From the NCBI GenBank assembly GCA_003614675.1, contig ML002301.1, forward strand, positions 1-45,644: 45,644 bases of DNA, given 5' to 3'. The DNA is from Dimargaris cristalligena (Eukaryota). How positions within the stretch are numbered: position 1 is the first letter of the stretch; each line of letters begins with the position of its first letter. The notes beneath the pieces are model-generated. The model was given only the letters and a program-made list of their open reading frames with translations, was not told where the DNA came from and did not search any database. This document shows, in pieces, positions 4,348 to 45,283 of the stretch. The position numbers and the translations under genes were made by a program.

Positions 4348-6810
4348 TTAATAATAGCTCGAGCCATGGAAACTAGTAAAGTTAATGAGACTGTGGGTGT
4401 GGGTATTTCCCAGCAGAGGTGCGCCATTCTGGGGGTTGTTGGCGGCCATAAACCCGCCATTATTAACCTGGGGCTGTTGACCAGCGGGTCCACCCGAACC
4501 AGGGTTACCGTTGGCGGTCTGGGCGGCACCAGGAGCAGAAGACGCCCCGAAACCATTGGTTGAGGCAGTGGAATCGTTGATCATACCAGAGCTCGACATG
4601 GTCCCATTCGCAGGTCGGATATTGGTGTTGTTAAACATCATCGACGGTCCCGATGGAGTAGTTCCGGTGGGGCTGTGCAAGGGCCGGTTGTTGGGGTGCA
4701 GTCCATTACCGTTCATGGTGCCATGTCCCAAGTGGTTCCCAACTCCATTAAGGCCAGACACTGACGAAACGGCGTAGGCATTGTCAGAGTGGTGGAAATG
4801 GCCATTGGTCAGCATGTTCGTGGGATGCAGCGAAGTAGCAACGATGGGCGCGTTGGGCAGGTTATAGATGCTGGGTCCTGTACCATTTTCCCTGGTGGCT
4901 TGCCCTGGGGTCGCGGTGCCGCTGGTTGGGGTAATGGGGTGTCCCGGTTGGGGCCCGGTCTCCATAGAAGCGGGTGGGGCTGAAACTACCACATGTCCTC
5001 CGGCAGGACGGGTGAGAACAGTACGCTTGCCATTCGCTTTACCGTCACCCCCACCGGACTTGCGGGATCGGGCCTGCCCCGACGCGGGGTCGAACCGTTG
5101 GCGTTTGCGAATAACGTCCGTCTTCAGTGAGACGGGCCGTTTCGACTGATGTAATTTGAAATACAGTCCGCATGCATTACACAAGGTAGCACCCTCCTCG
5201 TCCCGGCGCCAGAGTGGGGTGGTCGTGGTCGAGCAGTTACTGCATACGGGTAGATTAGCCAGGTCATCGGGGCGGGCATCCTTGCGGACTGAATGGGGAC
5301 GCATGGTCTTGGGCCGATCGGTATTGTGCAGCTTATAGTACAGACCACAGGCATTACAGAGAAGTTTATCATTGGCCGATCTGCGCCAAAGAGGGGTCGA
5401 GGTAACCCCACAGTTGGCACAGGTCTGCGCAGACCCACCGGTACTGTTCTTCGCGGAACTACCGCCGGAGGTTCGGGCTTTCTTGGGAGGACTGGGTTCG
5501 CTGGGATCGCGAGGGCTGCAGCACTCGGGGCTCTCCGATCCGTGAATATCCGTGTCGCATTCGGGGCTCGCCGAATTGCCGGCCGTACTGGGCGGAGACA
5601 TGGACACCGAACTGGCAGTGAAGTAGCAGTGGGCATGGTTATGGGCCGAATGATCCGGGTGGGGAGTGGTCTGGGGGGATTCGGACAAGGTGGGGTGCTG
5701 CGCCTTCGGAGTAGACTGATTAGAGAGCGCCGGGGAAGGTGACGAGTGACCTTGGAAGGCCACTGCATTACCACCAGACGAACCATTCATGACAGCAGCA
5801 ATGGCTGCCCGGGGGTCGACTACAGAGCCACCCATGGACCCAGCCAAAGGTCGAAACGAGACTGGGGTAATGCCAGGTCCGGAACCTGATGTTGGTAGCG
5901 CCCAGGGGTTTGGCATCATCGGGTTCATGGCCAAGCCGGAGTGGTAGCCATTCGAAGTATTATTCAGGGAGGCGTTCTGAATATTGACCATTTGGGCCGC
6001 CGGTGGTATCATGGCCAAATTGGAGTTGGAAAATTGGGCGGCACCGCCTAGATTATTCCAGCCGTTCATACCTAGGATATCATCAATAGATATTTCGATA
6101 TGGGGAGGCTGGTCCGCATTGCCCAGAAAAGCGGTGGCACCGAAACTGTTGAGAATATCATCAATTCCGGTGTCGCCTAACTGGCCGAGGTTGAAGCCTC
6201 CGGTGAGATCCTCGTCGTTCTGAGACACAAAAATAGCATTGTGGCCCGACCGATTCGCGGGGGCGATACCATAATATCCCGACTGGGCCAATCCGGTGGT
6301 GGAAGCGGCAACGGCGGTCGAAGTTTCCTGGGTAGCGGGAACCACGGGTTCCACAAGAGGTAACGGGCTAACAGGCTGGGATTGGGGATGGGGGCGAATC
6401 TCGGCCACGGAGGCACGGGGTGTAGGTTCGGACGACACCGGGGCGGGTGTGGCCATCGCTTTGGAGCTCATTTGCTCGACGGGGGAGGTGGGCTTAGAGC
6501 GCTTCTTACGAGCCCGGCCCGCCAGACCGATTCCGCGGGGGCGGTTGGGTAGGGATTTCTTGTTGGACTCGAGTTCAGCGGTGGTCTTGGCAGATAGCTT
6601 GCGGAACGGCTGCATATCACAGCCATCCAAGACCAGACCGTGCAGGTGCCACAGGCGCCAGGAAAGGTTTTCCAGGCGGGAACCGTCCTCAAGGGAGTCC
6701 TTGACCTTGGTAATGACTCGCCAGGTCTTGCTGAGTTCCTCGACACTTCCAACGTCATTGAACTGGCTAAACAGTTTGTTGCCTTTGATCTTAAGGATTA
6801 GAGGCGCCAT
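4348..6810 (-). CDS. GATA transcription factor with an N-terminal DUF1752-type domain and two C-x2-C-x17-C-x2-C zinc fingers (AreA/Gat1-related), 820 aa, intronless
   Basis: N-terminal [11 protein letters not shown] motif. Fingers [25 protein letters not shown] and [25 protein letters not shown], followed by the basic tail [15 protein letters not shown]. Confidence 0.93.
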
Positions 6811-7209
6811 GATTCCGGATTAATGGAATCCGGGTGAAATATTAAAGGGGGGTAACTATCGCCGGAGGGGGTTGATTATTCGGGATGGATCAGATCAGGT
6901 AAAGATCCGAGAGGTGGGGAACAATTAATAGTAATATAGGAAGTAAAGTGAAGAATCGCCACGGGCGCGGGGATATTGATGATATCACTTAAATAGGGCC
7001 AAGGAAGTTCGAGAAACGGGCAACCTTGATGAAAGTGGTAGTAGAAACTAAGGCGATAAAGTCGAAATTAATGGACCTTATCAAGGTCAAATTGTGGGTT
7101 TTGAGAGTATAAGCGAAGGAGTAGAAATGCGGCCAGGTCGGGTGTGTGGAGAGGCAACTTGGGGAGGAGTATAGTAGCGAATTTAAATTTTGAAAGCTGG
7201 GGAAGAGCT

Positions 7210-16062: not shown

Positions 16063-18383
16063 TTAGCCCATGGCTACCTTGACAAATTCGTTCTATAGCT
16101 CACAAGGAATGGATTGAAATGCCCGATAACATAGCAAATATACAATACGGAATGAGTACGGGGATCATCAGTAAACATAATCGTATTCACTGAACAGTCG
16201 GATGCTTATATATATCCTATCCCATTGCTCTATTTAAGCATCAGTGCATTGGACTCCCGCATTGGTTTATTTTTGGGGCATCAAGGACCGAGTACCCGGT
16301 AACTTACCTTCAGAACCGGAATGTGATTGACGGCGTTTAAGCCCAACGACCGCACGGCCGCGAGAGGACCACAGGACGTCGAGAACAATTTCTGCAGTTT
16401 ATCTACGGCCCCAATCATGACCAAATTAGCGAAATACCGGTCGGACGAGTAACCCAGCAGCGAATTATAGTCCCCGAGGTCCTGGCCATTCAGGGCCGCG
16501 CTTTCCAGGGCCCGGGTTATACTGGCCACATCCAGGAGGCCGAGATTCAACCCCTGCCCCGCCAGGGGATGGATGGTATGCGCGGCATCACCCACTAGAG
16601 CGATCCGTTGCCCAATGTACCGGTCGGCGTGTTGGAGCTTAAAGGGGAAGGAGGCCCGACTGTCGGGTTCCACCTGGGCTACCCACGGGGGTTGGTGATG
16701 GTGGTGGTAGGCCTGGGTGGAGCCAGTATCCCCCCCGGCCCCGTGGGCGGCGGTCAGTTCCGCGGTGGCCGCCAGGCGCACACCAAATTCAGTGACCATG
16801 GAGAATGAAGGGGTGGGTGATTGAATGTGTCGGAGGAGGTAGTCCAGGTCTTCGAAGGGAAGACGAAGGGCGACATTAAGGGCCTGAACGAACTCCGCTT
16901 CGGGGAGCTTTTTAAGGTGGGGCACAAAATCCTTTTCCATGGACCAGACTAATGCAACATGGTTGTGGGGCATCTGCGGGCGATGTGCAGGAATATCGGA
17001 GCCCCCCGAATGTTGAAGTACATAAACATGATATATATCAATAGCATGATTTAATCGATATGCCATTCTGACCTACTTTGAATCGATCCACCAGCCCCTA
17101 CCGCACCGCTCTAAATAATCATAATACATAGTAAACGTGTGCACGTATTTATCTATCGAGTAGTAACTTACCGGTAAAAGAGCAATGGGACCAGTAGGTA
17201 AAAAGCGTTGCCAAGCGGTAGTATTGACGCAGTCCGAGTCAGCCAGCTTCAGCATGGCCACAATGCCGTGCTGGGTGTAATTCCACCCCGCCGAGCCAAT
17301 ATTCGAAAACCGTCTCACGGGCGAATTGGCCCCGTCGGCCCCGATGAGTAGGCGGGTCTGCAGGGTCCGACCCGACGAAAGGCGCAGTACCGGCCAGTCC
17401 AATTCCGAGCCTGCTCCACCTTGACCCGGCGAGGTTGTCGGAGTAGTATTTGGGGATGCAGTGGACCGGGGCTGGGCCAGGCTAATATGGTCCACTTTGG
17501 TTTGATCCATAATTTCCACCCGGTCCCGTACTTCATCCACGGCCCGGAGGGCCGCCCGGTGGAGATTTAGGTTTTCCAGGATCCAGGCCATGGGCTGCTG
17601 TTGATTCAATCGATTTCCCGCGCGCGACAGCTCGGGCAGGTCGCGGGCCGAGAAATGGACCCGACCGTCAGAGACACCGTCCCACACTTTCATGTCGGTG
17701 TAGGGCTGGATGCGGGTGGCATCGAGATGGGGCCAGATGCCGCTGGCGACCAGGGTACTCTGAGACGCGGGGGTGATTGATACCGTTCGGTTGGAGTAGG
17801 CCAGGCTCGGCGAAGTATCCCATTGGCGTACTTTGTTAAGATCGGAGGATTCAATGAGCGCAACTCGACGGTTGGCTAGTGCGGGGTTGGAACCTGTAAT
17901 GATGGGACATACCCCTCCGGAAAAATTGGATCACAGGAAGTGGGGTAAGTGGCTTGAATGGGGTTTAAATACTAGGTGATCAAGCCTTCAATCGGGGGAT
18001 CCTGAACTAATAGACATTTAAATTCGTCCCTATATTGTCCTCGGAATACTACCGCTTGCACCCTTAATTGGAATACCGATACACAAACACATACACACAC
18101 ACACGCATATATATATATTGGGGATGTACGTCGTTTAGTAACTAGGTGGTATATACGCAAAATGATAGCCATAATAAAGTTGTTCTCTCGTACCTATTCC
18201 ACGGGCTAAGGTGGCCCCGGCGATACCCCCACCGACAATCACGACATCGAACAAGTCGGGCTTTTCAATGTGACCGGACGTGGGCGTGGAGAACCTACGG
18301 CGCTGGCTAGACCGGATCAGCCCCAGGCGACTGACTGGCGCACGGACGAATGAGCCGAGCAGTGACTGGCGAAGGAGGGCCAT
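16063..18383 (-). CDS. COQ6: Ubiquinone biosynthesis FAD monooxygenase Coq6, mitochondrial. Exons 18383-18194, 17893-17172, 16973-16308 and 16092-16063, about 535 aa
   Basis: Arg/Ser-rich presequence, then DVVIVGGGIAG, MKVWDGVS, LLIGADGANSPVR, TAWQRFLPTGPIALLP and ALVGDAAHTIHPLAGQGLNLG. GT-AG introns are in phase; the last exon reads NEFVKVAMG*. Confidence 0.95.
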
Positions 18384-19163
18384 GATTAGCAAACAGAATA
18401 TGACGAATTGAACTAAAAAGGTAAGTAAGCGGTATGAAGGTGAGGGGGTTGTCGGCAATATGAAATAATGAATGCGGAAGAATGTAACCCTACAAAAGAA
18501 CGACTTGGAGGCCCCGGAATCCCGCAGTTGGACCATGAGTCGGATTAGTCTGGGGGGTCCCCAAGGCTTGTCCAGCTGTTGGGAAATAAAGGGAGGGGCT
18601 GGGGGGAAACCACGCAGAATCATAGGTCTCCTGCGAAACGGAGCACTGAAGAGCCGGCTGGCTGGTATTCTTTCGGCAGCCTGAAATGGGGAGGCATATC
18701 CCCCCTCTCCATTCCATTGCGGCATGCTTGAATAGGCCCACTAATATATATATATATAAATCAGGTGTTTGGCATTTCAAGGCTGTTTGCTTAAAGTATC
18801 GGAAGAGAAATTGGGAGGTCAGGTCCGATTATCCCTGTTTGCCGTTTGTGTGGCTAATGAGGTAGCAGCAGTTTACTTAGCCTTGCGCCCCTATACCATT
18901 CGGTCCCATATATTCGTCATCCCCATTTTGAACATTGAGCATAATTTTAATTAAGCAGCCACTGTCGGAAGCGTAAAATAAAGTAAACCCCCCTAAGTTG
19001 ATAATATGTCGGTCGACCTATGAACTGATATCTCTAAGCAATCCTTTTGAAGCAAGTAATGAACAGTTGGGGATCATGAGAAATGGTTGCTTTTTAGAGT
19101 TGAATCATCGACTATGGTATGGCATACTGGACTATACTGTGCTCGATTCGATTCGATGATAAG

Positions 19164-29685: not shown

Positions 29686-32449
29686 GATATGTATGTACCA
29701 CTCTCGCTGGCCTTACTCCTTAGGGGACTCAGCTGTAAGGAGTGGTTGGCCCGACGCATGCCTTCGAGGGGTGCTGATTAACGGCGTTTCTATGCAGAAA
29801 TGGTCACCACATGGCAAGCGGGCCCAGGCAACGAACGAGGTGACCTCTTCCCCAGTGCCATACCACATATCACTCTCCCCATCAATTAAATTAGCACCCC
29901 TCCTTCCTATTTTCCAGGGTTTTGGACCCGCACTACGGTTATCCTCCTCCCCACCCCTTCGAAACTCCACTGGAAAGTGGCCAAGCAATTCAAGGCATCG
30001 CCTGTGTTGCGGCAGGGGAAACGGGTGGGCTTACTGGGGCTGGGCCAGGCTAATGGTGAAGAAAAGCCCTCTTCGTAACACAGGTGTAACGGCTCTACCA
30101 ATACCGTTGGCAAGAGACGGAAAGGGTCATTAGTGGGGAGGGCCGTTGCGGGGCACTGTCAGTGGTAACGCGTGGCGGCAGTGGAAAACCCGCATATAGT
30201 CTCCATGCGTACCAGGTCGCACAGACCTGTCAATAATGGGGGAGAGGGGGGCAACCTACCCGCTGCCATCGCTCTTTGGTCCGCCGTTAACAATGTATGC
30301 TATATGCTGTTTGGAGGCGAGGGCTTTATAAAGTTGAAGCAGCGCGCTGACCCTCCCACTCTTCCTTCCTTCATTCTTGAATTACCAACCGTTTCTGTTT
30401 GTGTGCCTGTCTGTTCTAACCGCACAGTTTGCTAGTTATTACATGTGGGGTGGTTCGTTGCCCGTCGATCTTTTCCCTCTCACTCTTTCTATTATTCCCG
30501 TTCTCTTCAGACCGCAAGTCCCAGTGTCATTTCTGTTTGAGCAACCCGTCTTCCCAGGCTTAACCGTTATCCTCACCCCGGGTTCACTCATATTATATAA
30601 CCGTGTGGGGTTGTTTTGGGGGTCCATCATTATTCATCCGACGGCCGCACCATTCAGTCCGAGAGATATACCCGTCTTCCAACTACCGCTTCTCCTCACC
30701 ACGTTCCGTAGTGCTCCTGGCCTTGTTGACCACCTGCTGCAGTGGGGTTTACCTTCTTATTCTGGACTCTTCCTCAATTAGGGCCAAGATCTAAATGCCC
30801 ATCATCAGTTAATTTCATTTGCCTTTCCCACTCAACACAGTGCCTGAATCTCTCTGGCCGGGTTTTGCTAGCTTTCCCCCCTCCCAAACTCCACCCACAG
30901 TCGCTGTGGTTCACCACGCCCTTCTCGGCTTAAGCCACCTGCCTCCCCCACCGTCCTTCTCCAGTCGCGACTGTATGCATGTGTCCATGCGGAAGATGCG
31001 CCTGTCTTGCCATCTCGCATCTTGTATTCGCTGCTACCTCATTCCCAGCTCACTCCCGCATTGCCCCATCAGGCTTTCCTTACGTTCCTCTTCCGCCTTT
31101 TAATATTCCTTCCCAGGACAGTCGTCACGTTTCCTCCGGTCCTCTCACTCACTTCATTTCATTTTGCCCTCCTATCCAATAGTTTCTCCTTTCTTTATTA
31201 TCAATTAGTCTCAGTAGCGGTTAAGTTAAAGCCGATTGCCACACCTCACCGACTTCTGCTGTATCTCCCCACCCCACCCCGCTCCGCCTTACCGCACTGA
31301 ATAGGAGGGGCCCGAGCACTCGGTCCATTGATTGTGTTAACGACCTCTCTCCCTCTAACCTCCCTTTTCCTTTATTTACTCGCCGCTTTGCTCTCGCCTA
31401 GTGGTCAGCTTCTCTACCCCCCTCTGTCTCTCTCTTTCTGACACCCGTTCGACTTGTGCTGTCCCATCGCCTTGGCTGTGCTTTTGTCTTTTCCGCCGCC
31501 CCCCCCTCTCTTCCTCATTTACTCACTCACACCCCGTGCTGCTCGCTGCCTTCCTATATTTACTCCACGCCGGCCGCCCGCTGTGCTCCCTGATTCTATC
31601 ACCTTTCTTTCCCATCCCCGCTTTTTTCTGCCTTACCCGACTACGCGCTACTGTGGCTTGCCCCACGTTTGTGTTCATCCCATTCCTTTCCCGTCGTCTC
31701 ACTCCTTCCCCACCTCGGTCGACCGCGCCTCTTTTATCTATTCCTCTGCAGTGACAAACTCCACCCATTCGCTCCTGGTTCTCCACCACCCTCACTTTTC
31801 CCGGCCTTTTGCACTGGTCTATAGATTCGCTTGTCCCCAATTTTTTTGTCTTTATTCCCCCACCCGTAATATCCATTATACTGCGCCTTCGACCAATAGA
31901 CACCCCCGTTCATATATATATATATATACTACCAGCCGCCTGTCCCAGTCACTTTTTACTATTGACGTAGAAGCCTCCTCTCCTCTTCTCTCCACTACTT
32001 TTGCGCTCAGCCTTTTTGACGCTCTCTCCTTTTATTTAGTTTGTACGCTCTTACTCACTGTTAGATGGGCTGGTCCTTTTCTCCCTACATCCCAATTGGC
32101 TTCATTTTCTAGCTTCTTTCATTTATTAGTATCCCTTCGGCGTTTAAGACCCTATCGTGGCTTCTCCTTCCCTGTGCTGCACACCATTTTCGTCAGGTTG
32201 CCTTAGTTCAGTCCATGCCTCTCCTAACCTCATTTTCAATCACCCTGAGTTCCACGTTTATATCAAGACTCGCTGCTACCTTCCCTCCCCTAGTCACCTT
32301 GACTTCTTGACCCCCCATCCCCTTGCCACCCACAACCCTGACCAGCCATTTGGTATTACCGTATCTGTGCCCTTTCTTTTAGCCGTGGTATATTCCCTTA
32401 TCCGTTTCGTTATCGCTACAGCTCTCCTTCGACCCTTTTATTTAACCGT

Positions 32450-34771
32450 ATGCCGACCATAATAGCACCTCCTCCTCCTATTCCCTGCGTTCTCCCTATC
32501 GATACCCACGTTGGGCCTGTTTTTGACATGAACCCCTCCTCTTGCTCTATAATTATTGTGGACAGCGTCTATTTGGCTTCGTCCTATCACCTTTTAGACA
32601 GTCCTTCGTCTGACGACGAGACCACCACCGAATTTTCGAGTCGTCCGACCACTGCCCGCTCGTCCACTATTCCCTCCGCTCCTTTACCGCCGACCCCACT
32701 ATCACCCCCGTCGACCCCACCCAGTACCCCCTCAGCCGCCCAGTTCTCTCAGGTCTTTTCACGTCGTCACCCGAAAACTGGCCGGAGGTCAAGTGTCCGG
32801 CGACCATGTAAGCGGGAGTGCCACGGCGCCTCTCGGTTTATCCAAATGCTCCTAGATACTTACCATAAGGTCACGGCGGTGACCTCGGGGGATGCTGCCT
32901 TCGCCTGTATCCGGAACCGGAGCACCCGGCCCGATACGTCCGTACTGCTACTTATCGACCTGGACCATCCCGCCCCAGCTGTCGAGGAGCTCCCCAACGG
33001 CACCAGCCGAGTTGGCTATAATGAAGACACCGATCCCAACGAGTTGGGCAGCGATGTCGTATACGGCCTACAGCTGCTTAAGTTGGTTGGTGAGCAAATG
33101 GACGGAGGCAAGCTGTCCAACGTTGTGCCCGTAGTGATGTCTTGCCGGCGAGACCCGGAGCTGATGCGCCAGGCCCTCTTACTCGGTGCCCTGGATTATC
33201 TCATTAAACCAGTCTCGGCGGAATCCATCCGGAGCCTGTGGCTTAACTCTGTCCGGTCCGAATTTCTACGGCGTAAGGGCCAGGTTTCCCCCGTTGAGCA
33301 GTGGACCACGGATTCCCCTCTGACTCTACGTGGGAATGGCTCCGTCGATTTTGACGCTCCATTTGACCATACCTGGCTGGAAAACTCGGTTGTGGAATCA
33401 TTCACACCTAATATTCTTCGGCCCCTGCGCCACACCTTCCCCACCGTCACAGGCCCTACGGCCGAAAAACAAACGGCAGCCCTTAAGCGGCGACTTCTCG
33501 AATGGGCTGTCTTCCCCTACGATCTAACCGAGGATGACTTGCTCCGGTGCATATATATCATCATCAAGGATGCCCTGGCCTGCTCCCATCTCCACATGCC
33601 TGATAATATCGTCCAAAATTTCATTCTAACCATCCATAACAGCTATTACAACACCAATGCCTACCACAACTTTCACCACGCCGTGGATGTACTTCAGGCC
33701 GCCTACTATTTTATGAAGACTTCCCAGCTCATGGACATTGGTCGGGATGCCAGCGCTGCTACCAAGTCCTTGATCCACCGCTCATTCCATGTCCATGACA
33801 TACTGGCCCTTATTATTGCCGCCATTGGCCACGATATCGGTCACCCTGGGGTTAACAACGGATTCATGACCGCTTGCCGGTCCCCACTTGCCACCTTGTA
33901 CCAGGACAAGGCTGTGCTGGAGCACTTCCACGCGACCGCCCTATGCCAAATCATGAAACGTTGCGGATTCGATATTGCTCGTTACAACCCTGGCTTCAAC
34001 GAGGCTGAGTTCCGCTACGTAATGGTGGAGACCATCCTTGCCACTGACATGGCCGCCCATTTCGACTATATTGAAAAATTTCGACAGCTTAAGTCCCGCT
34101 GCACGGTCGAGGCTGCCGCTCTACGCCGCAATTCGGTGACCGTTAGCCAACAGAGTCGCCTGACCGACCGCGTTATCATTTGTTCCATGCTTATCAAGTG
34201 CGCCGACATTAGTAACGTCACTCGGCCGTTCCACGTAGCCGGTTCCTGGACCAATCTTCTCAACGAAGAGATGGGCAAGCAAAGTGACCTGGAACGTAAA
34301 TTGGGTTACCCAGTCTCGATGGTCATTTCTCCCGAGACATCGGCCCGCTCCCAAGTAGGCTTTTACCGCGGTATGGCTCTTCCTCTCTTTGAGGCCGCCG
34401 TGGACCTGTTCCCATCCCTTGATTTTACCAGGGAGAACCTGTTGGAAAACATTAAGACCTGGGAACAGATCCAAGAGGAACAGGACCGGCGCCTGGCCGC
34501 TCAAAACGAACAGCGGGAAAGCCAGCGGAAACGGTTCGGAACATCCTGGACCAAGTCCCGAGGTTCGATTCGTTCCAATGCTGGGTCCATTCGATCTAGC
34601 ACGAGTAGCGGAGACGGTGGTCGGCCCCCGCGTGACAATACCGTCTCTCAGTTGCATTCGACTTCCTTGCCTTCGTTAGTGGATCCTGATGGCTCCCATT
34701 CTGGCGCATCTCTTACGCGAGCCTCTTCATCTGCCTCACGGAACCAACAACGTGTCCAGCCAGCTTCATAG
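32450..34771 (+). CDS. Class I 3',5'-cyclic nucleotide phosphodiesterase with an N-terminal response-regulator receiver-like domain (Pde2/RegA-like), 773 aa, intronless
   Basis: Catalytic motifs YHNFHHAVDV, HDIGHPGVNN, LEHFH, ILATDM, KCADISN and SQVGF. Receiver elements IIIVD, LLLIDL, VVMS and GALDYLIKP. An alternative ATG lies at 32528. Confidence 0.93.
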   Translation: MPTIIAPPPPIPCVLPIDTHVGPVFDMNPSSCSIIIVDSVYLASSYHLLDSPSSDDETTTEFSSRPTTARSSTIPSAPLPPTPLSPPSTPPSTPSAAQFSQVFSRRHPKTGRRSSVRRPCKRECHGASRFIQMLLDTYHKVTAVTSGDAAFACIRNRSTRPDTSVLLLIDLDHPAPAVEELPNGTSRVGYNEDTDPNELGSDVVYGLQLLKLVGEQMDGGKLSNVVPVVMSCRRDPELMRQALLLGALDYLIKPVSAESIRSLWLNSVRSEFLRRKGQVSPVEQWTTDSPLTLRGNGSVDFDAPFDHTWLENSVVESFTPNILRPLRHTFPTVTGPTAEKQTAALKRRLLEWAVFPYDLTEDDLLRCIYIIIKDALACSHLHMPDNIVQNFILTIHNSYYNTNAYHNFHHAVDVLQAAYYFMKTSQLMDIGRDASAATKSLIHRSFHVHDILALIIAAIGHDIGHPGVNNGFMTACRSPLATLYQDKAVLEHFHATALCQIMKRCGFDIARYNPGFNEAEFRYVMVETILATDMAAHFDYIEKFRQLKSRCTVEAAALRRNSVTVSQQSRLTDRVIICSMLIKCADISNVTRPFHVAGSWTNLLNEEMGKQSDLERKLGYPVSMVISPETSARSQVGFYRGMALPLFEAAVDLFPSLDFTRENLLENIKTWEQIQEEQDRRLAAQNEQRESQRKRFGTSWTKSRGSIRSNAGSIRSSTSSGDGGRPPRDNTVSQLHSTSLPSLVDPDGSHSGASLTRASSSASRNQQRVQPAS

Positions 34772-35464: not shown

Positions 35465-38400
35465 TTAGGGTAAAGTATAGGCACTGGGGGCATTGGAGGG
35501 AGTCAGGCTGACCTCCGTAGAGTTAGGGTGTGTGAATAGATGGGTCCGGGAAAGAAATGTAGGGCTCGGCATGGAGGCCATTTCGTTTTGCAAAGTCGAC
35601 ATGGAAGGCCAGAGGTTGTCCCGGGAGGAAGTCGAACCATGCCCATTACTACCACCCGTGCTAGTACCAGTCTCAGTGCTGATGCTGGTGCTGGAGTGGG
35701 TGGGGGACGGAAAATTGGTGATGGTGGGCAAAGGTAGCGTATTGGTACTCTGGACTAATTCGGAAAACCGATCGTAATTAGGCTCAGTCATCATTTTCCC
35801 GTCCGGCGCGAAGCCGGGCGAGGAGTAGTCTCCGACCTCCACGGCCGTGTTCCCCCCTCCCACCCCGGCGCGGTCATTGGCGGAGGAGGATGCGGGATTG
35901 TTGGGGTCCACCTTACCGCCGGCGGGTTTACGCCGGTATCCGAACGGGGTGGAGTCGTGGATCCGGACGACCCAGAAAATCATGGCGACCAGGAGAAATA
36001 CGGTCGTGTTGTAGAGGACAGCCCGGAGGGTCATGATCCATGGTTCGGCGTGTAATATGGACTGGTTGAGGGTGCCGCAAATGGCGAAGATGATGAACCC
36101 CACGAAGGTGGCTAAACATAGGACCGTTAGCTAAGGTGGGTTGGCGAGGAGGATGGGGCGGGTCGGTGGGAGGAAGAGGGAGGGATGGTGGGCCAATGGA
36201 TTGCAGTGGTTAGTAAAGCGGATAAAGTGGTCACCAGAGTTGGTGGAAAGGGGAGAAAAGGAGTCCAAGGGAAAGGTAATATGAAGGGGATTGGCTAGGG
36301 TGACAAAGGGAATTCCGGGTTGATTCGGGCCCCTCGTATCATTGGCCTGGACAGTAGCGGCGGAAATACTATACAGCGCGCTGGAAAAGGGGAGTGAGTA
36401 GATATGGGGGAGGGGGGCATTGTCGGTCACCACTACCGACCACCCGCCACTTAGAGAGGTGAATGTAAGCCTCCTTACCTTTTTTAGGGCTAGGCGAATG
36501 TTAGCAAAAAGAACGCTGCCCTTAATGAACACCAGGAACCGCATGCCTGTAGTATTTTTTAAAAAACAGGTATAGTATGCAAGGCCAATTAGAAAATAGG
36601 TGAGATAACAGAAAAGGGCAGGAGGGGTGCTTTGACCGCAATTTGAACATTGCCATGCCAATCCAAGGATCGAAGAAAGCCAATTGATCACCGGTTTTAG
36701 TGCGTACCAAGCCCAAGGGATACAATAAACGGGGACATAGCGCCTGTGGGTTGAAGGTCCGCTCACTAACTTACCGTAGAAGAATAACAGCATCCCTTGA
36801 ATAAGCATCGCAGCGGGGAGGAAAATCAGCGAAAACCACTTCTTGAGGGCCATGCCCAGGTCGGTCGGATACACCGTCAATATCATATTGAGCAGTGCGT
36901 AAAAGAACATGGTCAGCAGACCCAGGTACGTGCCTGCCCAAACGGCCTTGAGGAATCGAGGGGACTGGGTTTTCTTGATGATACTAGCCCTGTAGTTGGG
37001 GTACCATTTTATATTTCCGGATTGCAATGTGGGAAATTCGTACAAATTGTTACAGATAGGCCATTAGTTGGAATACATAAATATCGGTTACTGAATACAC
37101 GCAATCTTCCGGAAATGATAGTAGTCCCTTGGCTAATACCCGCGGAAGATTGGTTGCATGACCCATAGGAGGCTGAAAAGGGAATTACACCCCCCGCTAG
37201 TATACATTGTAACACTAGCGTATTCCCACCACTCCGCCATCCTTCTCCGGTACATCTGGTATAAGGAAGAAACATGATAACCAGCCCAGCCCATCCTCCG
37301 CCCAACCACCCTAATGACCCTAATATTATAATAGCAACTTACCAACTCAGCAGAATCCAGCAGTAGCAAATGTAGCCAGCCATCCAAGCGATATACCGAC
37401 AGTGTACCTGGATCCGGTTTTGCGTCGTGCTAATGGGGGCGATTAATCCGCCGGCCAAGAATATCAATGCGCCACTAAAAATAAAGACCGGTACATTCAG
37501 CCACTGCCCCGTCCACCGAATGGTTTGGACCGTCAAATAAATCCCAATAACGAGCAAAGGGGTTAACGAACTCCAGGCCATGGCGGTCCGGAATTTATAC
37601 CAAGCGGACTTACGGTCCCTATTCCACATGCCCTCATCCTGGACTAACTGGATTATCGTAGGCTGGAGTTTCAGGGGGGCTGTTGTCGGTGACTCGCCAT
37701 CGGTGACGGAGGAGGTGCGGTTATTGGCGGTGGACTGAACGTAACTACGGTCAAAGAGCTCCCGGGCCGAGTCACGACCAATGAGCGCCAAGGACACGTG
37801 AGGGGGCTTAACGCTGGCGTAGTCGAAGAAGTACTCTTCATCGGAACTACCGAAATTTTGGTTGCTATTGCTGTTGGCGGCGAGGAGAGCGACTCGGACG
37901 GGTGGGTAGCCCAGTTTGGCCATTTTAGACGTTAGGGCGGGGAAGTCCTCCAAGGCCTACGACAGTGAGTGAATATGTAGAGTAGTTCAATGGGGGCCGT
38001 GCCAGGTTGATATTCAAATATATATGGTCACAATGTTGCAGGGTCGTTTAGTATGGGCTTCAAAGTGATATAAGTACTGTCAAGGTCAGGTAGAGTGGCC
38101 AGGTCCTGCTTATTTACAATTTAGATCAGCCAGGGGAAGTGGAATAGACGGTCTACCATATAATACCGACACGGCATTAATTCGGCTTCGAGTCTAGGTT
38201 CTCTCTCTCACTCGCTCCAGTAATTTCCACCTTTGCCAGTTGGCCAACATACCGATAAATGAAAATGGTAGAAATATCATAAATTCCGAGCCGCGTTTTA
38301 CCTGACCGTAAGTGACACACTGGTTCATCTCCATATCTTCCCGGAGAAAAAACACAAAACTACCGTCAATTTCCCGACCATCTGTCGGTGCCACCCACGG

Positions 38401-38628
38401 GTCCTTGGGCGGTTCCAGGGTACATCCGGCGTGGATGGGTATCGGAATTAGTGGTCCGGTATAGTTGTAGAAGGCGGACTCGTCGCCCTCGTAGTCATAG
38501 CAGGGAAAGGACCGGTCCTGGCTGGTGGACCGGGTGTGGTCGGTGCTGGTGCGGAGTAGGGCTTGGCAAGTGGTTAGTAGTATGCACCAAACCACCGGAG
38601 CCAACCACCATCTCAGGGGGCGGCGCAT
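35465..38628 (-). CDS. Uncharacterised membrane protein with signal peptide, PA-like ectodomain, seven predicted TM helices and a Ser/Thr-rich cytoplasmic tail. Exons 38628-38302, 37956-37343, 36989-36775, 36546-36479 and 36130-35465, about 629 aa
   Basis: Four GT-AG introns join four ORF-track fragments in frame (1890 nt in total). N-terminus MRRPLRWWLAPVVWCILLTTCQA is signal-like. Seven hydrophobic segments were counted by eye. Confidence 0.8.
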
Positions 38629-41169
38629 AGGTGGGATAGTGGGTTATATTAAGCTGGAAAGGGTTAGAGCAGTTCTCCGCAGCTGGACATGGGATGCGGT
38701 ATGCTGGGAAACACAACGTGGGCGAGTAGATGAATAACTAAAGAACGATTCAGGTAGAGGGGGATACTAGTAGACGTGTTGAATTTCTTATAAAAACAAT
38801 AATAATAATGAAAATAGTAGTAACAATTAGGTAGAACTAAAGGCCAGACAGGAGGCGTACGATGCAGGAGCGGATGCGAGAGCTGGAGAGGAAAAATACA
38901 TTAATGCGAGGAAGGGTCGCTCTCAAGGTTAAGTCCCGCTACATGAGTTACGGATAGCGCGGCTAAGTGATGTTAAAATATATAAAGGTGTATAAGCAGC
39001 GCCGGACGGATTGCCTGCGATGAATTTAAAATATTACAGAGCGCGATATTGTAAATGAAAAATAGATATATTATTGTCAGAGAATCAATTTACCATACAT
39101 AAAATGTGCATAAAAATGAGAGTTACGGAAGTGGGGAGGAGGGCAGGCGGGTGTAGATATAGTGGGCATAAAGGAGACGAGACCTAGAGGGCTAATGGAC
39201 TGGGTCTTTGACTACCATAAAGGCGCGTTGATTACTATAGGCATCGTGCATTAAATAACTGAGGACGCAACTGTACAGGTAGCAGGGGTTGCATTAGATA
39301 GATGGGAGCGAACGAAGTGCTAGAGTAAAACAGGGGTGTCTATAGACTTAACATGCGGGAGGAGGGGGGATGTATGAGATAAAAAGAGAGAATATATGTG
39401 TGAGGGCGTGCAAAGGAGATTCTATTAACAGTAGGTCCAGGAATCTTAGATTACATGTGTGTTACCAATGTGGTGGCGAAAAGATATCACTTATAATATC
39501 CGGCGTATTCAGGCTCCGAGTAGCAGTCTCCCCCCTCCCTTGTTCACCCTCTGGTCCCTGGACTTAATTGTCCCCATTAGCGAGCTTTATTCATGCGGCC
39601 TGCCACTATATTGTCCGTTTTGGCGGTTGCCAAGGCCCCGTTCAGCCGCGAATCCCTCCCCCCTCTCTCTCGCTCGCTCGCTCGGGGGCAACATCACTTT
39701 AACAGCAAGAGTATAGGTTTATAGGGGCACCCGTGCTACCCAGGCTGCTTGGGGCTCTTTAAATTAAGGCCTGCGGATAATGCGAACAGTGGTGGTGCAT
39801 TTGCCTATTGAGCAGGGTTTACATGGTCGTATTCCATATAAATCCGCCGCATTCCCGACTCCCCAAGTCGCATACAGGCCGAGGAGCGTGGGGGTAGCTG
39901 AGATTAAAGATACTCCCTTGGGCCAGCTATAGATGTCGAAGCTCTAACCGGCACACTGCGAATTGGCCTCAATGGTACAGACTATTGTAGTCGGACCAAC
40001 CGCAATCGAGGGACTCTGTATGGTTCCTTCCATTCGACCCTTTCGTAAATTATATGCCCAACAACGGCACAAGCCCACCAAGACTAAGTCGGCCGTTTTC
40101 TTCTTCTTCTTTGGTTGCACACCGCTCGTCCTAATCGGTAACTGGCCGAGACTCTATTCTATTTTTACTCTGGCTGCAGCTCAATCGATCTTTATCGGGC
40201 ACCCATTATCCCTCCCATCGTTCGGCCAATGATAATTAGGGTACACAGATTTTGGTCGGTTTCTTTGAACACCACCCAATCGAACCATCCACTCGTATTC
40301 GAACCGCGACTATTCCTTTAATAGAGTCCATCCGCTATTTTTTTATCCACGCCCTTACTCCTTCGAATAAAACAACCTCCCCTGCTCTTTCACGAATACC
40401 GAATTGACCAGGGGGAGGGGAAGGTTAGGGTCAATCGGCGCTGCTAAATATCTACACTCTTATTCAGCTAGCACTCCACCCATGCTTTAGAATATTCGCA
40501 TTAATGTCCGAGGGCCAGTGTAGGCGATCCTGGCCTAACCCAGGGGAGGTGTGGTAGGAGTGCGGGCGAGCCCTGTAATGAGGGGGGGGGGCATAGGTTG
40601 AGCCAGAAATAGCCTCCCCTCCCTATATTGTAAAAGAGGGATAGGCCGGCTCTAATCGCCATTGGTCAAACCTGGATAGACCAGGGATGTGGTTGTACTT
40701 TAAACAGCAAAGGCAAGGTGTGTAAACCCAATACCTAAAGCGAGCATTGTCTCCATGATCAATACAGCGGTTAGGTAGATTTTCCATGCGCCTAAAAGGC
40801 ACACTGAGCTTCCCGTATCAATTAATTTGTCACCATTTTCTTTGTAACTGGTTACGGTTGGTAGCCGAAAAAGATATTATATCATTAGATCTGGAGAACT
40901 AACCGGCGGGTATGATCGAAAACACAGCCATTGCAATATGGCCATACATGCCCCCCTCCCCTTCTCTCAGTAAGCCAAATTGATGGCATTAATTATGGTG
41001 ACTATGGTTTGCCAATATCCTACAGACTAGAGAACTTAAGCATTCCTATTGACTGTAATAACATAATTTTTGGTATATATTATAGATTTAATACAGTAAA
41101 GTGATGATATATTTAAATGTAAACCAATAATTTGACTATACTGGCATACCGACTGGTGGGCATCACCTA

Positions 41170-43030
41170 TTAAATGATAAACTTCGAAGCAGGGAGACTG
41201 GCTTTACACAGGCGGGCCATCAGCCCGGTCAACTGTACCAGTGTCTGCACTCCCTCCAGAATTTTCATGTGGGTCATTCCAATTTCCTTGATGAAATCGA
41301 GTTTCAGGCCCTCGGCCATCACCCCGTCCAATTTAACCACTCGGAAAAGGGTAGTAATAATGTCGAGGGCACTGTACCCCTGGCCCCAGAGGTCCCGCAG
41401 CAGTTGGCAGGCCGGTTCCACCTCCCCTTTAGCACAGTGCTCAAGCATGCTCTGTACAATGACGGGGTGGGGCTGGTCACATACTTTAAAGACATTTTCC
41501 GAGTTCACATGGCCGAACCCGCTGTTCGTTGCTTGTAGATTGTTGACGGCCTGGCGCATGTCGCCCTCGGCCGAGAAAACGATGGCGTCGAGCCCTTCCG
41601 GATCGTACGATACCTAAACCGAAAAGAAAAGAAAAGGCAGAGAACAAATATACATACGTTAGAAAGTGCACTCGCGGAGTTATTCGAGGATCACAGTAGT
41701 GGTCGGGCGGGTTATTAAAGTTGACGAAATATCGCCATGCAATACCGGAATGGGGAGCATACCGGATTGGTCTTGCTTTAGGTATGGTATTTCTTTTAAA
41801 AAAACCCCAAGCGAAAAACCTCAGGTTAAAATAATTTTTTACCTTTTCCATTTCACAGATTTCAAGTAGGCGTTTGGTCAACTGCTTATCGCCTAACTTG
41901 CCATACCGGAGAATGGCACATCGGCTCTGAATCGGTTCAATAATTTTGCTTGACATGTTGCAAGCCAAGGCAAACCGGGTAGTGTTGGAGTATATTTCCA
42001 TGGTTCGTCGCAATGCTTGCTGGGCACCTGGTGTCATGCTGTTATATTACGCCCATTACCGATATTTATATATACACAATGTTTGGTTTCAGCCATTCGA
42101 TCATGTCAATTTAGGCAATTATCCGGATAGGTTTGAGGTGTGATGGCCCTTGAATTACCGAGCACGTTGGGGTCGTTAATCGTTATTGGGATAGTATCCA
42201 GCAGCGTCAAATGCGAGTATTGTTAGTTATACACTAATGCTTACCTATCAGCTTCGTCCAAAATAATAATCTTATGACGGCCCGCAGGCAGCGTAACCTT
42301 TTTTTGGGCGAACATTTTAATTCGGTTACGCACGACGTCAATACCCCTATATTTTGTGCCGCGATTCGGAAAATAAGTCACATTTAGAAATGAGTAGGTA
42401 AATAATAGGTGCCATAGACTTAATAACCCAGTCTAAAAGAGCGAATGGGCCACACGTTAGGATCATGGGATACCCAGTGGTTTACGAAATCGGGTTGGTA
42501 CGGCATCACTTACCGATCGTCGGACGCGTTAAGTTCAAGCACCGCTTCCTTGTAGGCCGGTCCCAGTAACTCGTGGGCCAGACATAGGACACTCGTAGTT
42601 TTACCGATACCCGGAGCACCCTGCATTTTAATGAGTATAAAAAAAGGCACGATAAGGCAATTGGTCGAAATTTGGTGGGATTGTCAAGGGCGGGAAAACT
42701 CTATGGTTTGCGCTAAACAGTCCAAAATCGCGGGGCTCAAGGATAAAGGAAGTAGAGGGCATATGGGTAAATCGGGGCGCTCCACTAAGGCGACAAACCC
42801 CGCCGGTAGTAGCGAGTGCATTCGGGATAAGTAGTAACTGCGTTTAGACTTACCGTAATGATAAGGTTGGGCAGATTGCCTTCCTGGGAGATGACCTTCA
42901 ACCTCTCAACGGTCTCCTCATTGCCTACAATGTCATTGAGACGAATGGGGCGGTACTTCTCGACCCAGGGCAGGTTATCAGAATCGGACGAGCCCGTAGT
43001 TGACTTGGAAGGTGCGGCCATGGCTGCCAT
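41170..43030 (-). CDS. RFC4: Replication factor C small subunit (yeast Rfc4/human RFC2). Exons 43030-42854, 42620-42514, 42346-42245, 42038-41843 and 41613-41170, about 341 aa
   Basis: [66 protein letters not shown] motif (IQSRC), [11 protein letters not shown] and VCDQPHP. Confidence 0.96.
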
Positions 43031-43591
43031 TATGTTCACGTCGAGAGGAGTTAAGTAGTGGTTCTCGGTTAAAGAAACGGAGATTCAACAATTCAAAACA
43101 TATATATGTGTGTGTAAGTTACAGACAGTTAATGGAGCAACACACCGCCCTGTCGGTATAGGGCTAGGCCTGGCTTAAGGTGTGCATTTGGCTTGTTTGT
43201 GGCTCGATGGGAAACGGAGCTACAGATTGTTGTGTTGTTAAGCTGAGCGAGTTTCTGTTTACCGCAGTCTGGATCACGTGGATCAAACCCCGGTAAAGAC
43301 GTGGGTCAATTCTGTCCTCAAGCAAGTGGATGGGGGCAGAAAGTACAGTCCAGCAGATTGGTGGTAGCGGGTGTGGGTCATTTTAGGGGGGAAAATGTTA
43401 TTCGTCAGACCACTCGTCACCATCAGATAAGTAAGTGGTCCAGGTGAATTTTTAGTTCTTGGCAAGCTGGCCCACAATTAAATACAATACATGGGGTTAC
43501 TGGGTGTAAGCGCCTCAACCCATTTGCTACCGCAACCCGTTGCATTCTAACCTATTTATCCCCTTAACTTGTCCATTGACCCGATTTCCTC

Positions 43592-45283
43592 ATGTCAGCT
43601 CTTCGTCGTCTAGCAATTGTCGGCAGCGGTCCCGCCGGGTTCTACACGGCTGCCCGTGTGCTCGGCCGTTCCGCCGGCAACGTAGCCATTGATATGTTCG
43701 AGTCCCTCCCCATTCCCCATGGCTTGGTTCGTTATGGAGTGGCTCCTGACCATCCCGAAGTCAAAGTAAGTAGTCATATCTGGGAGCCAGCTAGGACACT
43801 GTTGGAAGTCCAGCGCCTGTCTCCATAGCCCATTTTCTTAAACATACTTAAAAGTATATTCTCAGCTGGCCCGAGTATCTTGTATCTAATATTCGTAGCA
43901 TAACTAACTAATATTCCCACCCATATGTTTTAATCCGGAATAATACCGGCTGCGTGACTCTGTATCAACTCTAATGACCAGATCGTTATCAATCGGTTTG
44001 ATGAAGTGGCCACCAACCCCCATTTTCGTTTCTTCGGCAATGTAACCATCGGCCAAGATGTAAGCGTCGCCGAACTAGCCCAACACTACGACGGTATTGT
44101 TTTGGCCTACGGGGCTAGTCAAGACAAGACCCTAGGCTTGGATCAGGAAACCACCACCAAGGGTGTACTCTCCGCCCGTTCGTTCGTGGGCTGGTACAAC
44201 GGTCACCCGGACTACCAGGATTTGGACTTGGACCTTACCAACACCGATACCGCTGTGGTAGTTGGGCATGGCAATGTGGCCCTGGATGTAGCCCGGGTCC
44301 TACTTTCCCCCATTGACCGACTGGCCACCACCGATATCACCGCCCAGGCCCTGGATACCCTTCGCACGAGCCGAATCCGGCATGTCCATCTCTTGGGCCG
44401 ACGGGGACCCCTTCAGGTACAGTTCACCACCAAAGAACTTCGTGAAATGTTTTCAATTGCGAATCTAGCTCTGCGCACCGATCTCCCTCTACTCACTCGT
44501 GAATTAGAACGCGGCAAGGCCCACATTGCTTCCCGCCGACCGCTCAAGCGTTTGTTGGACCTCTTGTACAAACAGGTCAGTCAGGCAGCCAGCTCCACCC
44601 ATCCTCCGGTTTTAGGGTCGGAACTACCCAAGACCTGGTCCCTGGACTTTCTGACCAGTCCACAGGCCCTTGTTACCGCCCCACCCCCCACCCTTTCCGA
44701 CCCGGCCCTTGAGCCATATACCGGAACATTAACCGGACTGACAGTATGCCATAATACCCTCGAAGGCCCCGTCGAGTCCCCCCGTGCCATTGCCACGGAC
44801 CAAACCCATACGATTGAAACTGGCCTTCTCCTACGCAGTATTGGGTATCGCAGCGAAGCTGTGGATCCCAGTGTGCCATTTGATACCCGCCACCATATCG
44901 TTCCCAACTCTCAGGGCCGAGTCGATCCGGCTCTCTTGGCGGCCCACCATTGTACATTACCGCTCGGTATGTATGTGTCGGGTTGGTTGAAGCGAGGCCC
45001 TAGTGGGGTGATCGTGTCGACTATGAGTGACGCTTTTGAAACGGCCGAAGCCATCTTGTCCGATATCGACCAGTCCCCGAGCTCGGACCTGGTCCCGAGT
45101 ACCCCGTCCTCGTCCATACTAGAACTCCTTCGGGCCCGCGGCAAAGTGCCCGTTACCTACGCTGACTGGAAACGAATTGAAAAATACGAGTTTGCCCAGG
45201 GACAGCTGCAGGGCAAGCCCCGCGAGAAACTAACCCGGGTTGAAGATATGCTCCAGACCCTCCAGTTGCCCAGCTCCCACTAA
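43592..45283 (+). CDS. ARH1: NADPH:adrenodoxin/ferredoxin oxidoreductase. Exons 43592-43765 and 43982-45283, about 491 aa
   Basis: AIVGSGPAGFY, GLVRYGVAPDHPEVK, SARSFVGWYNGHP, VGHGNVALDVAR, GRRGP, RSIGY, GWLKRGPSGVI and GKPREK. GTAAGT donor at 43766 and CAG acceptor at 43981 (phase 0). Confidence 0.96.

Follow-up and report, generated by a model that had tools for sequence, protein, structure and literature searches.

What kind of protein is encoded at positions 38628-35465 of contig ML002301.1 of the mould parasite Dimargaris cristalligena (assembly GCA_003614675.1), a stretch of 45,644 nucleotides that is referred to here as the window? The original prediction, made from the letters alone, was of a receptor-like protein that becomes visible only after splicing, with a signal peptide, a protease-associated (PA)-like ectodomain, and seven transmembrane (TM) segments. 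According to structure models, the product almost certainly unites a PA ectodomain and a seven-helix bundle with the shape of a G-protein-coupled receptor (GPCR) in one protein. It is probably a signalling receptor of some kind, and coupling to a G protein, which we treat as putative, falls slightly short of an even chance. PA and GPCR-type folds are both known; their combination and the family that carries it appear to be undescribed.

The spliced 629-residue model was identical, letter for letter, to a hypothetical protein of D. cristalligena (RKP39070.1, KAJ1980281.1; here P0001), and all of the motifs and hydrophobic segments quoted in the original prediction were found in it. Because the public record is itself a gene prediction, independent support for the exon model was needed. 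The introns (345, 353, 228, and 348 nt) were all bounded by GT..AG, and in the spliced reading frame the GC content at third codon positions (GC3) was 0.68, versus 0.49 and 0.48 at the first and second positions. The intron positions and phases (0, 2, 1, 0) were common to the paralogues P0011 and P0012 in all four cases and to P0080 in three of the four, and the intronless paralogues P0019 and P0042 encoded the whole PA-7TM architecture in one frame. Orthologues from Tieghemiomyces, Dimargaris, and Dispira, with 51-64% identity, aligned without gaps across every junction; one frame of exon 2 by itself encoded the PA half and TM1-3; and Cys69, Cys104, Trp220, Trp314, and TM7 were all present together in 43 of 67 aligned members. 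The match to the public protein and the common intron positions thus bear out a gene seen only after splicing, and its signal peptide is supported by hydropathy and by the presumed -1 column, which holds Ala or Gly in 94% of 51 rows.

The fold of the ectodomain was examined with an AlphaFold model of an orthologue fragment, P0007 (61% identical; mean predicted local distance difference test [pLDDT] of 93.8). All 37 of the Foldseek matches listed bear a PA domain (best E of 5e-6), including M28 peptidases and a glycanase that we take to carry one. A wide VIA search ranked GRAIL first, and in a second look 46 of the 50 matches listed were PA-bearing, with GRAIL (Z of 9.6, root-mean-square deviation [rmsd] of 3.7, 151 aligned residues), cargo-bound VSR1 (Z of 9.4), and ZNRF3 (Z of 9.1) at the top. 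The Z range of 8-9.6 is moderate, but over the alpha/beta part the matches agree fully. Aligned lengths were 122-151 residues for stand-alone receptor PA domains and approximately 113-137 for PA domains inserted in proteases. The presence of a PA-like domain was therefore confirmed on the P0007 model, and the earlier extent of some 230 residues has to be narrowed, the fold itself spanning about 39-214 and including a species-specific insertion of 23 residues (near 182-205 of P0001) that is absent from the four orthologues of alignment A1. Additional segments of the family's PA domain lie around Cys104 and an acidic loop.

By sequence profile the domain was not recognised, as no PF02225 match reached the Pfam cut-off among 67 family members. 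The genome has 27 PF02225 matches, mostly in open frames of 850-930 residues; of the 15 that were examined, the majority have subtilase motifs. No donor of the ectodomain was found among the subtilase or RMR-type PA domains of the genome by hidden Markov model (HMM; best E of 0.44) or by hhalign; since no related PA domain was detectable in the genome by these methods, none is claimed.

Within the PA domain, the acidic loop was identical at 80 of 100 positions in the orthologues, with Gly145 in 97% of members and a net negative charge in 48 of 60. In a weak hhalign alignment, the PA cysteine helix is followed by a strand and then by this loop, and we infer that the loop may correspond to the cargo-peptide-binding region of VSR1. 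The PA domain of VSR1 recognises C-terminal peptides of its cargo, and acidic residues give a preference for basic ones (PMC8740768); PA domains are protein-interaction modules that bind proteins and peptides (PMC4021871; PMC8740768). At the junction with TM1, the hinge retained Gly218 in 95%, Trp220 in 63 of 63 rows (100%), and Asn221 in 94%. The positions conserved family-wide are Cys69, Cys104, Gly145, the hinge, and Trp314, the last of which stands at the inner end of TM3 and is likewise invariant (63 of 63 rows).

Table 1. Features of the PA-7TM gene and its product, in window positions
Feature	Position	Strand	Residues	Remarks
Whole gene	38628-35465	minus	629 + stop	5 exons, 4 introns
Exon 1	38302..38628	(-)	1-109	signal peptide and first PA half, invariant Cys69 and Cys104
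Exon 2	37343..37956	(-)	110-314	remaining PA part, acidic loop, GxWN hinge, TM1-TM3
Exon 3	36775..36989	(-)	314-386	intracellular loop 2 (ICL2), TM4, TM5
Exon 4	36479..36546	(-)	386-408	end of TM5 and basic ICL3
Exon 5	35465..36130	(-)	409-629 + stop	TM6, TM7, tail
Signal peptide, probable, cleavable	38560..38628	(-)	1-23	hydropathy and family-average hydrophobic N-terminus
PA-fold ectodomain	37642..38514	(-)	~39-214	split by intron 1; AlphaFold of orthologue P0007 with Foldseek and VIA
Acidic FG-x-E-x-Y loop	37804..37878	(-)	136-160	candidate ligand-binding surface
Hinge signature [DE]-x-G-P-W-N	37621..37638	(-)	216-221	joins PA domain to TM1
Seven-helix bundle	35951..37605	(-)	227-258, 264-281, 290-321, 325-353, 357-395, 400-431, 438-468	
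Cytoplasmic tail, disordered, Ser/Thr-rich	35468..35950	(-)	469-629	29% Ser + Thr; poorly conserved

In the AlphaFold2 model of P0001 itself, made with a 67-row alignment, an alpha/beta ectodomain is followed by seven membrane helices and then by a disordered tail; 378 residues, nearly all of 41-470 except the insertion, had a pLDDT of at least 90. Among the 49 Foldseek matches listed for the bundle against the PDB, 46 were GPCRs and 3 were microbial rhodopsins (best E of 4.5e-4); by VIA, matches reached Z of 14-16 (up to 15.9-16.2) at about 4 Å rmsd over 208-242 residues. Residues 365-428 of P0001 form one unbroken hydrophobic stretch, which might be mistaken for three helices; the family-average hydropathy has a basic break at about 392-407 within this stretch, and AlphaFold gives exactly seven helices. 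Positively charged residues (Lys plus Arg, 55-62 members) averaged 2.9, 3.3, and 4.7 in the loops after TM1, TM3, and TM5 and 1.6, 1.2, and 1.2 in the three outer loops, and this bias places the N-terminus outside and the C-terminus inside. The membrane part of the original prediction, namely, seven segments in a GPCR-like bundle, an N-out/C-in topology, a basic loop before TM6, and a Ser/Thr-rich tail, agrees with these data: helix order and packing match, the basic break corresponds to ICL3, and the tail has the composition given in Table 1.

Conservation among the orthologues, counted within region limits that were set by hand from the AlphaFold model, was highest in ICL2 (50 of 56 positions) and next highest in the acidic loop 136-160 (80 of 100); extracellular loops (ECL) 1 and 3 and TM3, TM6, and TM7 had 67-79%, the PA domain as a whole 294 of 552 (53%), and the tail 73 of 276. 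Across the family, tails had a median length of 117 residues with 21% Ser plus Thr (56 members), and that of P0001 contains one YxxF at 527-530.

The original prediction had treated the gene as a singleton, which proved incorrect, as it belongs to an expanded multigene family. A profile from five orthologues (E of 0.001 or less, among 1.84 billion sequences, clustered at 50%) found 71 family representatives, and the 28 to which an organism was assigned were all from Zoopagomycota, a taxonomic range that is a minimum. When the 67-sequence alignment was used for a word-indexed search, the only homologues to come back were the same 8 close relatives. The genera concerned, Dimargaris, Dispira, Tieghemiomyces, Ramicandelaber, Coemansia, Basidiobolus, Piptocephalis, and Thamnocephalis, are placed in Zoopagomycota (PMC9866270, PMC6784888). 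In the 30.7-Mb genome of D. cristalligena, at least 13 loci, this gene included, match both the ectodomain and 7TM profiles, and all 13 retain both parts; this count is a lower bound, and 10 of these loci were among the sequences from which the profile had been built. A tree of 56 members, after removal of 11 fragments shorter than 300 residues, contained many old paralogue lineages, with P0001, P0011, and P0012 in a fully supported clade. A role confined to mycoparasites was rejected because putative saprotrophs, Coemansia and Ramicandelaber, also have members, five of them named paralogues in the latter.

To which class of seven-helix proteins might the family belong? No Pfam profile reached its cut-off in any of the 67 members, the pheromone receptor (Ste2, Ste3), Git3, and PTH11 profiles included, in keeping with the earlier view that the protein fits none of Ste2, Ste3, Gpr1/Git3, and PTH11; 7tm_3 and other GPCR profiles were equally without a match in these members. 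Class A receptors are marked by DRY and NPxxY motifs, and class A was rejected, as neither motif was found in residues 226-470 and there was no 7tm_1 match. Microbial rhodopsins bind retinal through a Lys in the middle of TM7; they were rejected too, as TM7 of P0001 (441-464) has no Lys. By VIA, Ste2 structures (Z of 14.2-15.3) lay within the generic band. In the Atlas comparison, one Fung_rhodopsin cluster had a TM-score of 0.69, below the threshold of the tool. Neither alignment A1 nor alignment A2 had a meaningful sequence match in the PDB (best E of 0.028 and 0.6).

The automatic UniRef name of P0001, 'Lung seven transmembrane receptor-domain-containing protein', is unsupported. The GOST/Lung 7TM family also has a signal peptide, a folded luminal domain, and a 7TM region, but its ectodomain is a GOLD domain instead of a PA fold and no profile match was found in either direction. 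Membership in this family (PF06814) was rejected, as neither P0001 nor the 67 members had a GOST_TM match; the true GOST gene of the genome lies on another contig (E of 9.7e-48), and the family's 7TM profile gave an E of 18 against it. GOST/TMEM87 structures were absent among the 50 bundle matches listed, which does not exclude them. In the review of fungal GPCRs, GOST/Lung 7TM is class X (PMC11943073, Table 3).

By the language-model features of residues 225-470, the nearest named 7TM families were TOM1/THH1, GPR137, and PRRT3, with 9 of the 10 best named matches sharing a family or clan; the score of 0.86 is a lead only, as Atlas feature scores below 0.9 are often reached by shuffled proteins. 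PF06454 (THH1/TOM1/TOM3) matched none of the 67 members, and its search of the D. cristalligena genome was uninformative, yielding no candidate but no control match either. These families thus differ from ours in falling below 0.9 and lacking a Pfam match; moreover, GPR137 is described as having no domain outside its 7TM region (PMC12716839), whereas the PA ectodomain is always present in the Zoopagomycota family. TM184 and PRRT proteins have a GPCR fold and recruit arrestin and G-protein-coupled receptor kinase (GRK), with no recruitment of G proteins when tested (PMC13581589).

In its working mode the family would most resemble ectodomain-bearing GPCRs, and its membership of GPCRs proper hangs on G-protein activation. 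With class C and similar receptors, it has in common a signal peptide, a folded ectodomain, an N-out bundle, and a lineage-specific expansion in early-diverging fungi, and the bundle matched GABA-B and GPR156 at Z of about 15 by VIA. Anaerobic gut fungi have expanded class C receptors with non-canonical ectodomains (PMC5168858); these are, according to the accessible text, SBP, pectin-lyase, or EGF domains, unlike the PA fold of about 175 residues here. GRAIL/RNF128, ZNRF3/RNF43, VSR1, and RMR resemble the family in that a luminal PA fold (Z of 8.7-9.6) leads straight into a membrane helix, but they have one TM segment and a RING or sorting tail, in place of seven helices and no RING, and a PA-TM-RING E3 ligase or RMR was rejected on this ground. 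An analogy purely in function is offered by Gpe1-Pit2 of Ustilago maydis, in which a fungal 7TM receptor senses a protease-released peptide at host entry (PMC13652807); a PA ectodomain is not mentioned in its abstract and introduction.

We therefore propose, tentatively and at somewhat less than an even chance, that this is a membrane sensor from a Zoopagomycota receptor family whose PA domain senses a peptide or protein and which signals via a heterotrimeric G protein. Judging from prediction and loop charges, the signal peptide would direct the receptor-type PA domain to the cell exterior or to a lumen, where it would be held by a Cys69-Cys104 disulphide and, as PA domains are known protein-interaction modules, might bind a peptide or protein via the family-specific acidic loop. 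The invariant GxWN hinge would then pass the change on to the GPCR-topology bundle, whose conserved basic ICL2 and ICL3 could engage a cytoplasmic partner, most likely a heterotrimeric G-alpha of the genome, and the Ser/Thr-rich tail may serve phosphorylation and internalisation. Because their ectodomains have diverged, the paralogues would differ in the ligands that they sense, e.g., peptides freed by secreted subtilases from a host or substrate. The many subtilase PA matches, together with the Ustilago analogy and the subtilase expansion reported in D. cristalligena (PMC6784888), suggest a link of the family to proteolysis, which is speculative. That the family is an unnamed, phylum-wide class of fungal GPCRs, whose PA ectodomain senses peptides or surface proteins and activates G-alpha, is a wider claim that we hold to be rather doubtful. 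The genome has three G-alpha genes. When residues 218-478, which make up the 7TM part, were modelled in complex with a G-alpha of the genome lacking its first exon, the score was 0.30 versus a mark of 0.34; controls were not folded and alignments were unused, so that this score gives no verdict and has no evidential use.

Several results weigh against a G-protein-coupled signalling receptor. The class A motifs are missing, and the hhalign probability of the ectodomain against the genome's own PA domains was only 1-2% (1.2-2.2%), where a positive control gave 93% and a reversed profile 0.1-0.2%. Class A, C, and D GPCRs, microbial rhodopsins, and two de novo designed bundles were tied in the VIA search, which indicates a general GPCR/rhodopsin fold with no class singled out, and the arrangement of helices in a bundle is by itself enough for a Z of about 13. 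For the PA domain, the best structural matches are sorting receptors and ubiquitin ligases and not signalling receptors. PRRT3 is among the nearest families by features, and PRRT and TM184 do not recruit G proteins. Finally, the occurrence of the family in putative saprotrophs means that host sensing by parasites is not its specific role.

The main alternative is a sensor with a GPCR fold that works without G proteins, of the TM184/PRRT, GPR137/TOM1, or PalH/Rim21 type, whose PA domain would still bind ligand and whose output would run via arrestin-like adaptors, tail phosphorylation, endocytosis, or vacuolar signalling. We consider this unlikely but deserving of weight: besides the TOM1, GPR137, and PRRT3 clusters and the arrestin and GRK recruitment mentioned above, 2 of the 67 members match PalH/RIM21 below the cut-off (best E of 8.8e-5), and long Ser/Thr-rich tails run through the family. 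The feature scores are, however, below 0.9, where shuffled proteins are often found as well, PF06454 matched none of the members, and the conserved basic ICL2 and ICL3 suit a G-alpha interface, although other partners would explain them too. Quite unlikely in our judgement is a role in the secretory pathway, as cargo receptor or as trafficking chaperone, in which the luminal PA domain would bind sorting signals of soluble cargo (e.g., secreted proteases) as in plant VSR/RMR and the bundle would act in a GOST-like manner. The rank of cargo-bound VSR1 among the PA matches, the peptide binding of VSR1, the automatic GOST/Lung-7TM name, and the YxxF in the tail speak for it; yet GOST_TM is unmatched and the true GOST gene is unrecognised by the family's 7TM profile, two other paralogues carry different automatic names, which suggests that such names are guesses, and a core sorter would not usually have 13 or more diverged paralogues. 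So large a set of divergent genes, a tandem pair among them, is easier to reconcile with a repertoire of receptors than with a single housekeeping sorter.

The better conservation of ECL1, ECL3, TM3, TM6, and TM7 than of the PA domain as a whole would also suit a receptor for a small molecule or lipid bound inside the bundle, with the PA domain only a lid, a dimerisation surface, or a folding aid. We regard this as improbable, given that the acidic PA loop is 80% conserved in the orthologues with its FG-x-E-x-Y pattern present family-wide and that PA and 7TM parts are both kept at all 13 loci. Hardly credible at all is an annotation artefact, with exons wrongly joined or with PA and 7TM parts as separate genes: it would be in keeping with the predicted nature of the public record and with the merging of genes by error in this group (P0008, below), but exon 2 spans the PA half and TM1-3 in one frame, the intronless paralogues encode the full architecture, intron positions are common to paralogues, and the five conserved features stand together in 43 of 67 members.

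Full-text literature searches within the main texts of openly available papers returned no PA-7TM architecture. A PA domain is not mentioned in the main texts of PMC12716839, PMC3251606, and PMC3971589, nor does the term 'protease-associated' occur in the accessible text of PMC9866270, PMC12716839, and PMC11943073. The architecture was likewise not found in the accessible parts of GPCR surveys or of the fungal GPCR review PMC11943073; the supplementary 7TM catalogue of PMC13581589, outside this scope, may list such proteins as unannotated. GPCRs of Conidiobolus have been counted by Pfam (PMC12387763), and because none of the 67 members passes the Pfam cut-off, counts of this kind miss the family entirely.

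How Zoopagomycota, which include mycoparasites, animal parasites, gut dwellers, and saprotrophs, sense hosts and environment is poorly known, and at least 13 genes in a 30.7-Mb genome constitute a sizeable hidden receptor repertoire. PA domains are familiar as peptide and protein binders from single-pass sorting receptors, ubiquitin ligases, and proteases; placed on a GPCR-type bundle, one would provide a direct, testable path from proteolysis or surface proteins to signalling, which yeast reporter strains would allow to be tested without culture of the parasite. If the proteins are PA-bearing GPCRs, they would add to the fungal GPCR classes, represent the first such architecture, and be a candidate host-sensing repertoire of obligate mycoparasites, with protease-released fragments of hosts or substrates as possible ligands. 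If they are independent of G proteins, they would still extend the 'dark' 7TM proteins by a ligand-binding branch.

Some further observations concern the relatives. Intron number varies among paralogues, several being intronless and others having up to seven, and one tandem pair of members (L078, G000:C665 3500-12500; 35% identical) has one gene with an intron and one intronless. Look-alikes in the Atlas at 0.93 (residues 40-470) are unnamed clusters, one mostly of Zoopagomycota and two mostly of Endomyxa, with PF02225 on 10% of the members of one cluster; the Endomyxa clusters are a hint of a wider eukaryotic spread outside fungi. In P0008, a record of Dimargaris verticillata, the 7TM half of the orthologue is fused to a PA-TM-RING protein. 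A real 7TM-PA-RING fusion was rejected in favour of a probable gene merge, since a luminal PA domain cannot come after a cytoplasmic tail; in D. cristalligena, the RING half has a gene of its own, on G000:C176. A TM-RING-H2 gene (L089 1733-3343, G000:C65) lies approximately 5 kb upstream of the paralogue P0012 with one opposite-strand gene between, a second membrane RING gene near a PA-7TM gene that is possibly a chance association. On a 33-kb contig (G000:C203), member P0080 (~4485-6868) and a G-alpha gene (17965-18873) are 11 kb apart with other genes between. The G-alpha genes L001 and L002 are 88% identical and both end in CGLL; the third is more distant and ends in SGIL.

In the window, the gene lies between a response-regulator/cAMP phosphodiesterase gene and a replication-factor-C (RFC)-like gene. 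The former (32342-34771, plus strand) encodes a high-affinity cAMP phosphodiesterase (PDEase_I, E of 2.3e-66) with a weak receiver match below the cut-off (E of 0.018), an architecture known from Dictyostelium RegA. It is convergent with the receptor gene at a distance of approximately 700 bp; a functional link was rejected as unsupported beyond adjacency. The RFC-like neighbour was read from open reading frames (ORFs), and the piece tested gave no Pfam match. The other genes of the window (1303-26216 and 41131-45283) look ordinary and encode Yip1, an AreA-like GATA factor, RNase P p30, a zinc-type dehydrogenase, PNO1, a pyridine nucleotide-disulphide oxidoreductase, and, as read from ORFs only, a COQ6-like monooxygenase and an RFC subunit.

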